From Eledone cirrhosa (lineage: Eukaryota): a DNA stretch of 64,000 bases. The DNA is taken from the NCBI GenBank assembly GCA_964016885.1, contig OZ024752.1, positions 31,558,001-31,622,000 on the forward strand. Reading direction: 5' to 3'. Below are positions 19,237-49,268 of this stretch, in pieces. Each line of letters begins with the position of its first letter. Position 1 is the first letter of the stretch. The notes beneath the pieces are model-generated. The model did no database searches. It saw only the letters and a list, made by a program, of their open reading frames with translations, and was not told where the DNA came from. Made by a program: the position numbers and the translations under genes.

Positions 19237-19435
19237 TAGGGAAAGGTATGACCCCGACGGCAGAGCTCAAGCCGTTTCGACGGCTATTTCTGGACTGTCC
19301 AGAAATAGCCGTCGAAACGGCTTGAGCTCTGCCGTCGGGGTCATACCTTTTCCTATTACCCACTCTACTACCCTAAGTATTGAGTACTCTGGTGCGTTAT
19401 GGTCCATCTGGTTCCTTACCACAATTCCTTCGTTA
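19237..19435 (+). mobile_element. Fold-back short element, copy A
   Basis: 59-bp arms (19237-19295 / 19297-19355) + ~80-bp tail, inserted in (TA)n. Confidence 0.85.
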
Positions 19436-19573
19436 TATATATATATATATATATATGCATGCATATTCTTACGAATGAAAGATTTCTATTTCTATATATA
19501 TAAATAAATAAATAAATATATATAAATATATATATATATATAAATACAATACAATGAAAGGAAACATAATAGT

Positions 19574-19614
19574 ACAACTGATGATGTTCCAGATGTGCAA
19601 CGAAAGAACTTTGT
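19574..19614 (+). ncRNA. Hammerhead-like motif, imperfect (PLE fragment ~19545-19780)
   Basis: acaa CTGATGA t gtt ccagatgtgc aac GAAA gaact ttgt. Appears to lack one nt at the cleavage site. Confidence 0.55.
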
Positions 19615-19780
19615 TAGACTATATATATGTATTTATATCTGTATTTTTAACCGATGGTCAGTCAATGATAAACATTGATTGCCAAATAAATTAACTATGG
19701 AGATATAAAAGATACAGAAGCGAAAACCAACCAAACACTGAGTGTGTTCTGTTATTATTTCTGGCAATATTATTACAGTA

Positions 19781-19972
19781 TGCGGTGGATTGGCAGTATC
19801 GGTAGAGAGTCGGACGCCATGCTTTGCAGCAAAGAGTTACGGCTCTTTATGATCTGAGTTCAAATCCCGCCGAGGTTAACTTTGCCTTTCGTCCTTATGG
19901 GGTCGATAAAATAAAGTACCAGTAATACACTGGGTTATTGCTGGCCTTGTGCCTAACGTAGAAACAATTATT
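19781..19972 (+). mobile_element. SINE copy
   Basis: Full consensus match. Confidence 0.88.
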
Positions 19973-20194
19973 ACAACAATATGCCCCTCCCCAAGTATAA
20001 CAATATATTTATATATATATAGAGAGTGTGTGTGTGTGTGTGTGTGTGTGTGTGTGTGTGTGTGTGTGTGTTATTGGGACCGGGGAGACACAAATGAAAG
20101 AAGTACTCTATACATGGTACGATACAGAGTAGGTATATCAGTAAAAGTGGAGGGCCGACCGCGATCTCGGTAGTTTCAGTTACATACATACATA

Positions 20195-20470
20195 CATGGG
20201 CGAGATTGATGTAAGGGATGGCAAGCTGCTCAGTGTTACTGGAAACTTTAACATCAATGGCCATATGGTCTATATTTCTCAGGGTTGTCGGGCCCTAAAA
20301 TCTACATTAACATCAAAGTGAAATGCTCAATCTCTGTAAAAGACACCCCTACAAATGATCAGATTGCGAGCTACTGGAAATCTGTATAGGAAACAAATGA
20401 GTTCAACAAACAACCTACTGCCAGCATGTTGAGTAAACGCAATATGAAATAGATGGCTCAATACTGAGCC
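20195..20470 (+). mobile_element. Older, rearranged fragments of the same R4/Dong family
   Basis: 20195-20300 resembles 22620-22715 (ctcagtgttactggaaactttaacatcaatgg). 20320-20470 resembles 21300-21480 (gacacccct...tactggaaatctgta...atagatggctcaatactg). Confidence 0.75.
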
Positions 20471-21238
20471 ATCTATTTCATATTGAACCACACACACATA
20501 TATGTATACATATATATATATACATATATATATATATATATACATATATATATATATATATACATATATATATACATATATATACATATATATATATATA
20601 TATATACATATATATATATATATACATATATATATATATATACATATATATATATATATATATATATATATATATATATACATATATATATATATATATA
20701 TATATATATACATATATATATATATATATATATATATATATATATACACATATATATATATATATATACACATATATATATATACATATATATATATATA
20801 TATATATATATATATATATATATATATATATATATATACACATATATATATATATATATATATATATATATATATATATATATATATACACATATATATA
20901 TATACATATATATATACACATATATATATATATATACATATATATATATATACATATATATATATATCTACACATATATATATATATATATACACATATA
21001 TATATATATATACATATATATATATATATACATACATATACATATATACATATACATATATACATATATATATATACATATATATATACATATATATATA
21101 TACATATATATATACATATATACATATATACATATATATATACATATATATATATACATATATATACATATATATACATATATATACATATATATATACA
21201 TACATACATACATATATATATACATACATATATACATA

Positions 21239-46758: not shown

Positions 46759-48018
46759 GGAGAACATGATATGAAGGCTAAAAAACACTTGTGGATAGTG
46801 CAGTTTTAAATCAACAGTTTTGTGGATAGTGCAGTTTTAAATCAACAGTTTTGATCTTATAAATTATGTATACTCCAGTCCTACAAACTGTAGAGTGCTT
46901 CTTATCCGATATCTGCATTGCTTTATTGTACTACAATAAAACTCACCTCCTACATATATTTATATATATATTTATATATATATATATTTTTTTTTATTCA
47001 ATTGAAGAAAGTTGGTATATTGAAAATCTGTCAACTTTTTCTTAACATACGTAAAGCACTCCACGGCTTTTGTTCATCCGGAGTTTTATTAAAATAATAA
47101 ACAAGAAAGAGATGAACAAAACCATCTTTCTTGTTTATATATATATATATATATATATATATATATATATATATATACACATATATATATATATATATAT
47201 ATATATGTACACATATATATATATATATATATATATATATACACATATATATATATATATATAAATATGATACTCCGGAAAAAATTCGTTGAGTGCTTCT
47301 AATCTGTTGTAAATTAACTTTGTTGAATAATCAACAAACCAAATAATTCATTGTTTATATATATATATATATGTGTGTGTGTGGATGTGTGTGTGTGTGC
47401 CTGTGCCTGTGTCTGTGCGCGTGCGCGTGCGTGTGTGTGTGTAAAATCCATTCAGAGGGTGTTTTGTAAATCCCAACTAACAGATTAATTCTATTTAGTC
47501 AAATACGTCGTAAGCACATGTTACTACCTAATTTCAAATTCGCTAGCCATTTATAAACAAAGCCTGCTCTGTGTCTCCTTATTTATATACATATATATAT
47601 ATAATTTCATTTATGTTAGGGTGTTTACCAATAGGTAGGGTCGATGGTTCGGGTTGCTAAACGATGTGCAACAAATTAATTAAAGCACTCAACGTTATGT
47701 AAGTCATCAATCGTAGATGTGGCATCCAGTGGTTGCTGCAGAAACGGAGTAAAATATTCATTAAAACAACAGAAGGCCGAACTGGAACATTTACTTTAGA
47801 ATTTTAATTGTGAGAAAGTACTTTACCAGACCGGCCGGCGTTCTGTTATTGTTTTAATGTATATATATATATATATATATATATGTGTGTGTGTGTGTGT
47901 GTGTGTGTGTGTGTGTGTGTGTGTGTGTGTGTGTGTGTGTGTGTGTGTGTGTGTGTGTGTGTGTGTGAGCCCCGGGTTCAATCGGGGTTAAAAGCCATTT
48001 CTATATATTATATATATA

Positions 48019-48212
48019 TAACGAAGGAGTTGTGGTAAGGAACCAGATGGACCATAACGCACCAGAGTACTCAATACTTAGAGTAGTAGAGTGGGTAATA
48101 GGAAAATGTATGACCCCGACGGCAGAGCTCAAGCCGTTTCGACGGCTATTTCTGGAGTCCAGAAATAGCCGTCGAAACGGCTTGAGCTCTGCCGTCGGGG
48201 TCATACATTTTC
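48019..48212 (-). mobile_element. Fold-back short element, copy D
   Basis: Palindrome 48102-48212 (centre 48157) with the tail on the left, in (TA)n. Confidence 0.85.
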
Positions 48213-48247
48213 ATATATATATATATATCATACAATACATTAAAATA

Positions 48248-48780
48248 ATGATTTCTAGTATAGGCTAAGGCCAATCATTTTGAGGGATGGGAAAGTCGAT
48301 TAAATCGACCTCAGTACGTTACAGGTGCTTTATTTTATCGACCCCGTAAGGATGAAACCTCGGCGGGATTTGAACTCAAAGGACCGTAACTCTATGCTGC
48401 CAAACATGGTGTCCGATTCTACCAATCTATCGCCCTACATTACATTAAAATAATTGTTTCTACTTTTGGCACAAGGCCAGCAATTATTCTAGTATATTAC
48501 TGGTACTTTATTTTATCGACCCCGTTAGGATGAAAGGCAAAGTTAAACTCGGCGGGATTGGAACTCAGATCGTAAAGGGATATAACTCTTTGCGTCAAAG
48601 CATGGTGTCCGACCTTCCACTGATACTGCCAATCCATCGCCATTAAAATAATGTGATCTATTCTTAGTTTGGAGGTAATAAATCTCCATTATATTTCTTC
48701 AATACGATCTGAGTTCAAATCCCGCCGAGGTTAACTTTGCCTTTCATCCTTACGGAGTCGATAAAATAAAGTACCAGTAA
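48248..48780. mobile_element. SINE cluster (two minus-strand copies, one plus-strand fragment)
   Basis: Consensus matches. Confidence 0.85.
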
Positions 48781-48933
48781 TGGTGAACGAACTGGACGTT
48801 TCTGTTAGAATCGTCTAATTTCAAGAAACCTTGGGTAATGGAATAATTGTATTGTGTTATTTTATAACTATATATATATATATATATTATATCACGCCGC
48901 CCGTCCCTTCAATCTATCTTATTTCTCATTCTT

Positions 48934-48969
48934 TCTTCTGATAAAGGACTGGCGTCCGAAACGTTAAGA
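48934..48969 (+). ncRNA. Hammerhead motif with mutated core (family B, element ~48893-49058)
   Basis: tctt CTGATAA a ggac tggc gtcc GAAA cg TT aaga. Confidence 0.65.
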
Positions 48970-49073
48970 CCCTCTTCCTGCTATTTCAAGCGTTAGCCAA
49001 ATATATTCCTTCCATATACTGTAGCGATTGTGTTGTTATTTCTGTTTCCCTTTTACATATATATATATATATA

Positions 49074-49268
49074 TAGAAACGAGTAGGACCCCGACGGCTG
49101 AGCTCAAGCCGTTTCGACGGCTAATTCTGGACCAGAATTAGCCGTCGAAACGGCTTGAGCTCAGCCGTCGGGGTCCTACTCGTTCCTATTACCCACTCTA
49201 CTACCCTAAGTATTAAGTACTTTGGTGCGTTATGGTCCACCTGGTTCCTTAACACATTTCCTTCGTTA
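49074..49268 (+). mobile_element. Fold-back short element, copy E
   Basis: 57-bp arms (49074-49130 / 49132-49188) + tail, in (TA)n. Confidence 0.85.

Follow-up and report, generated by a model that had tools for sequence, protein, structure and literature searches.

The window analysed here, a stretch of 64,000 nucleotides (nt) from Eledone cirrhosa (assembly GCA_964016885.1, contig OZ024752.1, positions 31,558,001 to 31,622,000 of the forward strand), contains five intact fold-back elements and one relic, all embedded in (TA)n, that derive from a Penelope-like element (PLE). These 200-bp stubs are probably short insertions of an autonomous PLE, for which two complementary DNAs (cDNAs) would have been copied from a single, probably capped RNA as far as its 5′ terminus and then end-joined head to head after running off. 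In the 3.0-Gb genome a 22-mer of the arm has 54,367 exact matches, and the short head-to-head fold-back junction is present at at least 15,251 loci, both counts being exact-match lower bounds for which reversed-pattern controls gave 0.

Each intact copy is ordered as (TA)n, inverted arm, apex of 1–2 nt, direct arm, 80-nt tail and (TA)n. All six elements lie where the initial annotation had placed them, and its description of the five as near-perfect palindromes holds, with arms of 53–59 bp, 0–1 mismatches before the outer end and loops of 1–2 nt. Positions are numbered from +1, the A of (T/C)AGT(C/A)C, which lies 18 nt upstream of the GAAA of a hammerhead ribozyme and inside its stem II; +60 (CCTA) is the outer end of the arm and +140 (GTTA) that of the tail. 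Copy 1 (19237–19435, plus strand) consists of an inverted arm (19237–19296) corresponding to parent +60 to +1, a direct arm (19297–19355) corresponding to +2 to +60, and a tail (19356–19435) corresponding to +61 to +140. In copy 2 (24605–24793, plus strand), which is of the same subfamily as the intact parent at locus L093, the inverted arm reaches +7 and the direct arm runs from +5 to 24713, followed by the tail (24714–24793). The inverted arm of copy 3 (40489–40678, plus strand) reaches +3 and its direct arm runs from +7 to 40598, with the tail at 40599–40678. Copy 4 (48019–48215) is on the minus strand, with the tail at 48019–48098, a tail-side arm reaching +3 and the other arm (48156–48215) starting from +1. 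In copy 5 (49074–49268, plus strand) the inverted arm reaches +2, and the direct arm from +4 to 49188 precedes the tail (49189–49268); the predicted fold energy of this copy (49073–49270) is −125.8 kcal/mol (z −20). The relic (3286–3393, plus strand) is of an older subfamily; its inverted arm has lost 10 bp internally and adjoins a tail that starts near +86. Within-window BLAST E-values are 1e-71 to 1e-100 for the copies and 2e-10 for the relic tail. Sequence differences that had been regarded as copy-specific are instead subfamily variants, common to many copies and to long parents, and the variable block noted earlier is the internal loop of stem I, which marks the subfamilies. The apices do differ among the window copies as reported, but recurrence is also seen, the apex of copy 5 being found in most of its 30 best matches.

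Long copies were reached via widely spaced inverted pairs among the genome matches (fetched loci carry L numbers), and they include the PLE-type parent that had been anticipated, with one open reading frame (ORF) for a reverse transcriptase (RT) plus a GIY-YIG endonuclease at the C terminus; the presence of this parent in the same genome bears out the PLE derivation of the window elements. Locus L093 comprises an arm, the tail, a 719-codon open frame from the first ATG (starting at L093:3280), a 3′ untranslated region and a second arm. The parent monomer, taken from tandem arrays, is 3,531 bp, and the four units at L253–L254 are 99.97–100% identical to one of the four. The 719-residue protein contains the motifs FIQFD, YRDD and VIY..YIG and has 2,054 homologues at ∼40% identity, mostly unnamed; a Pfam scan of this protein gave no match, and the domain names rest on motifs and on PMC8557442. 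Further motifs are RWR at residue 37, DKT at 117, CNCPDRSIC at 572, CNLC at 670 and CKH at 698, with one cysteine between VIY and YIG. By these features the parent would belong to the Hydra-clade PLEs as described in PMC8557442, sharing with them the C-terminal GIY-YIG, the RWK-like motif (here RWR), DKT, the CxCX5C linker, the absence of CCHH and of a cysteine pair between GIY and YIG, a CxxC and a CxH towards the end, insertion into (TA)n and a terminal hammerhead. It differs in its monomer length (3.53 kb, versus generally <3 kb), in the tens of thousands of stubs of the present family, and in a U3-A8 ribozyme core where five Hydra rows of PMC8557442 have CUGAnGA; the octopus family Hydra-1_Obim of its supplement is 2,507 bp long and has a ribozyme sequence different from that of the parent.

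Partial tandems, an inverted 5′ copy and an optional 80-nt tail are found at L092, L093, L099 and L251–L260, and element lengths grade without break from stubs into full-length copies. The long arm may stand on either side: L092 has 2.9 kb at the +140 side and 0.5 kb at the +60 side, as against 0.8 and 5 kb in L093 and 0.3 and 16 kb in L253–L254. PMC8557442 and PMC3846280 describe PLEs with inverted 5′ copies, palindromes at the junction and a tail on one side only, and the family is a member of that known class. The arrays at L251–L252, L253–L254, L258 and L260 are tandems of two to four near-identical 3.53-kb units that carry a +60 or +140 end together with an inverted partner arm, and are candidate products of rolling-circle copying or repeated jumps. 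Near family copies, two further elements, divergent but encoding these protein motifs as well (CxCX5C linker, RT), have ORFs at L098:2394–3749 and L100:2437–3480.

As first read, the arm corresponds to a hammerhead's 3′ half. In copy 5 this half (49148–49188, plus strand) comprises GAAA, stem III with a near-palindromic loop, the GUC triplet and the 3′ strand of stem I with an internal loop; the predicted cut, at the GUC triplet and likewise in the type I hammerhead of the parent, follows +41. The parent motif expected from the window copies, CTGAnGA-GACGGCTA, has 0 matches in the genome. The sequence upstream of the arm in the parent is ACCCC-(T/C)TGAnAA-GnTCGGCTA (5,839 occurrences), and we predict a complete type I hammerhead whose core, in place of CUGAnGA, has the U3-A8 form, a PLE variant described in PMC4209133. 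Minimum-energy folding of this region gives a three-way junction, with an energy no better than that of shuffles (z −0.04). Of the first 100 of the 5,839 matches, counted by eye, 98 have A at position 8, 77 have U and 23 have C at position 3, and all four bases occur at position 7. Since 23 of these 100 combine C3 with A8, the core variation suggests that the predicted cleavage may be dispensable. CTGAnGA within 30 nt of GAAA gave 41 matches, and those inspected were chance junctions or chimeras with other families. An Rfam scan of the window at gathering score returned no hammerhead and a single 5S rRNA-like match (7010–7128; RF00001, 56.9 bits), in which several pairs are disrupted and which is probably a pseudogene or the head of a short interspersed nuclear element.

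None of the window copies carries a complete catalytic core. The initial annotation held that the core had been erased by snap-back of the cDNA; the arms instead stop at a fixed position ∼40 nt downstream of it. In 65 of 79 junctions the two arms stop no more than 19 nt from GAAA, with peaks at 17–18, and all ten window arms end between +1 and +7. The 79 junctions come from loci L061–L120 and L151–L190 plus the window, with one locus counted twice, and were restricted to junctions of ≤70 nt (many ≤46), so that long arms were left out; this restriction does not itself create a stop at 17–19 nt from GAAA. The outer ends are fixed as well. Among 107 fold-backs not chosen on their ends, one +60 end is paired with one +140 end in 99, the remainder being one tail/tail pair, one +60/+60 pair and six unscored, and long copies end at the same two boundaries. 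Both ends run on as TAT in the parent, matching (TA)n, in agreement with the microhomology to the TA target that had been proposed; as both flanks are (TA)n, no target-site duplication is readable.

The base preceding +1 bears on the origin of the inner stop. Where parent-like sequence continues upstream (11,053 matches), 97 of the first 100 matches have T or C at this position. A purine precedes +1 in 7,458 arms, and in the first 100 of these it is G in 86. A scripted count over 30 loci gave 16 G and 0 A for which the flank cannot be the source (three of the 16 are best discounted). There are also 193 loci where the G is present on both arms, each complete to +1, with a spacing of mostly 0–1 nt. 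The context of +1 is an initiator-like pyrimidine-A, and TATTTAAATA, which we take to be TATA-like, is found at −29. From the extra G, the pyrimidine-A context and the position of TATTTAAATA, we infer that +1 is the transcription start and that the G is a copied 5′ cap, as the extra 5′ G of L1 and SVA has been read in PMC2912911; a promoter inside the pseudo-long terminal repeat (pLTR) is described for Penelope in PMC2377424. As +1 lies inside stem II, the 5′ ribozyme copy in such an mRNA would lack its core, and the core would be missing from the stubs because it sits ∼40 nt upstream of this start. RNA beginning at +1 is predicted to form a 6-bp hairpin between the 3′ strand of stem II and the 5′ strand of stem III (L093:3049–3080), an alternative to the ribozyme fold. 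Independent support for an RNA end at +1 comes from three loci (L261–L263) that run to +1..+7 and then restart at internal positions +959, +232 and +254, with L263 using one site two times. Jumps without homology that lead from +1 onto +40..+57 are rare (17 matches, 4 of them at the predicted cut). Opposite-strand joints near +1 occur in contigs of one of two sequencing runs of unrecorded kind, although that run is possibly from the assembly's sample and contigs cannot show starts. Loci L224, L225 and L232 were considered as full-length copies ending at +1, and their wider regions revealed short template-jump products.

In the 79 junctions the lengths of the two arms are uncorrelated (Spearman 0.07, p 0.55), the +60 arm being longer in 36, equal in 15 and shorter in 28. 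The seams overlap by 1–4 nt in 36 cases and by 7 nt in 4, are blunt in 14 and contain insertions in 25, several of which are copied from the neighbouring arm. Among 105 copies we counted 100 junction types, a diversity that extends to every subfamily, so that the stub is not amplified as a unit and the junction, as had been supposed, is made anew at insertion. These 105 copies remained after removal of 32 of 137 whose loci had been chosen for likeness to copy 5. Within a copy the arms diverge by 0.045 per site, about twice the 0.025 of the tail (measured from the nearest common tail), and arm divergence between copies is 0.118. The proposed homogenisation of the palindrome is thus not borne out, as the arms drift independently, and the values fit arms that were identical at insertion and drifted separately afterwards; a difference of 4.5% between arms also rules out an assembly artefact. 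Both arms are of the same subfamily in 104 of the 105 copies, and L102 combines two. A 6-bp duplication is confined to one arm in all six matches, two of which are one duplicated locus, and its apparent presence in both arms of L082 was placed in one arm on closer look. Small tandems also occur, of a 54-bp unit (+1..+54) within a fold-back at L295–L297 (G000:C1632:29500–29800) and of a 47-bp unit at L290–L291.

The most probable account of these features is a twin-priming-like insertion, for which the uncorrelated lengths and the microhomology and insertion junctions are genomic indications. The endonuclease would cut both strands of (TA)n, and each cut 3′ end would prime one cDNA through a 2–3 nt TA(T) match, one at +60 and the other at +140, and in most cases a single RNA molecule would serve both, in keeping with the agreement of arm subfamilies in nearly all copies. 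In agreement with such a scheme, an Anolis PLE protein cuts and extends both target strands in vitro and has two start sites bounding the tail (PMC11167929). On an RNA starting at +1, the cDNAs would run off after 60 and 140 nt, copying the cap, and host end-joining would trim their ends and seal them head to head. Where the template runs past +1, by read-through, a circle or a template jump, long copies in inverted and tandem arrangement would arise from these two starts as well. At 30 loci examined, the tail continues toward the ORF in 21 and crosses +1 seamlessly in 14 of these; read-through RNA, a ribozyme-made circle, as proposed in PMC4209133, or homology-guided transfer could each account for such crossings.

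The alternative that survives best, in which a single cDNA folds on itself or is closed as a hairpin, its first arm serving as template for the second, is in our view unlikely. It would explain why 34 of the 105 copies have identical arms, why subfamilies agree, why a few rare variants are present in both arms (L175, L270, L279) and why loops are tiny, and PMC3846280 takes junction palindromes as self-priming on an antisense template. Under such copying, however, the tail-side cDNA is the required template and could not be the shorter arm, as it is in 36 of the 79 junctions; the 193 loci with both arms complete to +1 plus G leave almost no loop; the two subfamilies of L102 and the jumps found in either arm alone are not expected; DNA copying would need an exact stop at +60 every time; and the extra G is on the sense strand, contrary to an antisense template. 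Snap-back at stem II in particular, as the initial annotation had it, fits poorly with independent arm lengths and with arms that are both full to +1.

Still less probable is an explanation in which the stop at +1 reflects RT stalling at the upper stem II hairpin, or a processing site within a longer RNA, with an untemplated G. The position of +1 at the base of the predicted hairpin and a commonest stop at +2 accord with stalling, but the preference for G over A in a ∼63% AT genome, the pyrimidine-A context with a TATA-like box at −29, and the restarts of L261–L263 at unrelated internal sites do not, and the much stronger stems III and I are traversed without a stop. Clonal spread of the 200-bp unit as a non-autonomous element, akin to a miniature inverted-repeat transposable element (MITE) or a retrozyme, is very improbable, for although the copy number is very high and most of the 30 best matches to copy 5 have its apex at 97–98% identity, that apex also occurs in another subfamily (L261), junctions are distinct in every subfamily, and the ends are the tail boundaries of a parent into which lengths grade; the window elements look like dead-end insertions and not like a self-spreading non-autonomous family.

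Several observations weigh against insertion by two run-off cDNAs. The commonest arm stop in the 79 junctions is +2 and not +1, and ∼20% of arms continue seamlessly beyond +1, for which a second template or a jump that leaves no trace would be required. In the 30 loci of the scripted count, 11 of 27 G cases could have been supplied by the flank, as could 3 A, and at one long locus (L259) G is present at −1 in continuing copies. Agreement of arm subfamilies fits one RNA but equally self-copying, and central deletion after insertion could blur arm asymmetry. The short-junction samples are length-restricted and were drawn for the most part from a single contig, within its first 21 Mb.

A wider extension of the two-cDNA reading is conceivable, if on balance doubtful, namely that PLEs replicate by a retrovirus-like strong-stop step, that the fold-backs are failed transfers and that such stubs reveal, for any PLE family, the start site on the basis of genome sequence alone. 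A start inside the hammerhead would disable the 5′ ribozyme, and the 3′ copy would cut, leaving a 41-nt terminal repeat. RT would start 60 and 140 nt from the cap, run off and transfer by homology to the cut 3′ end, and such transfer would yield seamless tandem copies.

The twin-primed reading has precedents in L1, where the two cDNAs cover different parts of the RNA and inversion is a minority outcome. Here both would cover the same 60 nt from two fixed starts, giving a palindrome. The likeness lies in two target-primed cDNAs on one RNA, joining by short complementarity and the extra 5′ G read as a copied cap (PMC2912911). With PAc, the Anolis Poseidon protein, the family would share two RT starts bounding the tail, cutting and extension of both target strands, an AT-rich target and, as a further likeness, a hammerhead that is not needed for insertion (PMC11167929). 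PAc starts without target homology, in contrast to the TAT shared here with (TA)n at both ends, and the available text of that account does not treat inverted termini, cDNA joining or 5′ run-off. Like the inverted, 5′-truncated pLTRs with an optional tail described for Penelope, Naiad and Adineta PLEs (PMC8557442, PMC3846280, PMC2377424), the family has an inverted head-to-head copy, a junction palindrome, a one-sided tail, partial tandems and a probable promoter inside the pLTR; in contrast to them, the tail is 80 nt and not 30–40, and most copies here comprise only two termini. Published readings of such structures invoke antisense self-priming or endonuclease resolution, whereas the present data favour two sense-templated cDNAs with one fixed 5′ end. 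The stubs resemble non-LTR retrozymes (bioRxiv 10.64898/2026.07.22.740005) and PLE hammerheads (PMC4209133) in being non-coding, PLE-derived and associated with a type I hammerhead, and the latter source notes both a U3-A8 core and opposite-strand motif pairs 100–700 bp apart in Schistosoma. Retrozymes, as described in the former, are head-to-tail tandems with complete ribozymes; identity with them was rejected because stubs are single head-to-head units without a core, apparently non-propagating. Stubs can pass for MITEs in repeat libraries, an identity that we rejected because one end is the 80-nt tail and the 105 copies carry 100 junction types.

In a search of the open-access literature we found neither minimal two-terminus stubs as the predominant form, nor a fixed inner stop with an extra G, nor the two-cDNA run-off reading. 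PMC8557442 and PMC3846280 both count the formation of tandem and inverted PLE termini among the unsolved questions, and more than 15,000 natural junctions now favour two sense-strand cDNAs over self-priming. The stubs tie two start sites known in vitro to both insertion ends and predict a transcription start to the base; two-cDNA run-off, if true, would explain the inverted ends of PLEs. Pattern counts drop on moving upstream along the element (54,367, 11,053 and 5,839), a rough comparison as the patterns differ. If transcribed, the 55-bp perfect hairpins of the stubs could form double-stranded RNA, which the initial annotation considered a possible ADAR or Dicer substrate.

The fold-back pattern may be general in this genome. 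The fetched loci contain 59 other long palindromes, which include about ten clusters of at least two members with hammerhead-like cores, and in several of these clusters the apex lies near a common position. TTGAnAA cores in the fold-backs of other families (L227:2354, L113:833, L032:557, L202:2482, L220:861) place the U3-A8 variant in more than one family. At L040:1342–1572, L045:1389–1650 and L081:1489–1630, an arm of the present family is fused to the fold-back of a different hammerhead-bearing family, possibly by inter-family template switching, or by nested insertion followed by deletion. Within the window, a fold-back of another family (42402–42830) has arms of ∼165 bp, each with a complete CTGATGA...GAAA hammerhead-like motif, and a one-sided tail in (TA)n; related copies are near 1757 and 34000, and 42402–42750 is among the ∼ten clusters. 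Further hammerhead-like motifs of other families, mostly followed by a short tail and (TA)n and probably other PLE termini, are found at 3527, 11438, 48950, 49545 (minus strand) and 52035, and on the minus strand also at 11857, 43287 and 46750. Directly left of the relic, a tandem repeat of a 25-bp, partly palindromic unit occupies 2950–3190, and between copies 4 and 5 (48250–48790) a different short interspersed repeat is present three times, twice in direct and once in inverted orientation.

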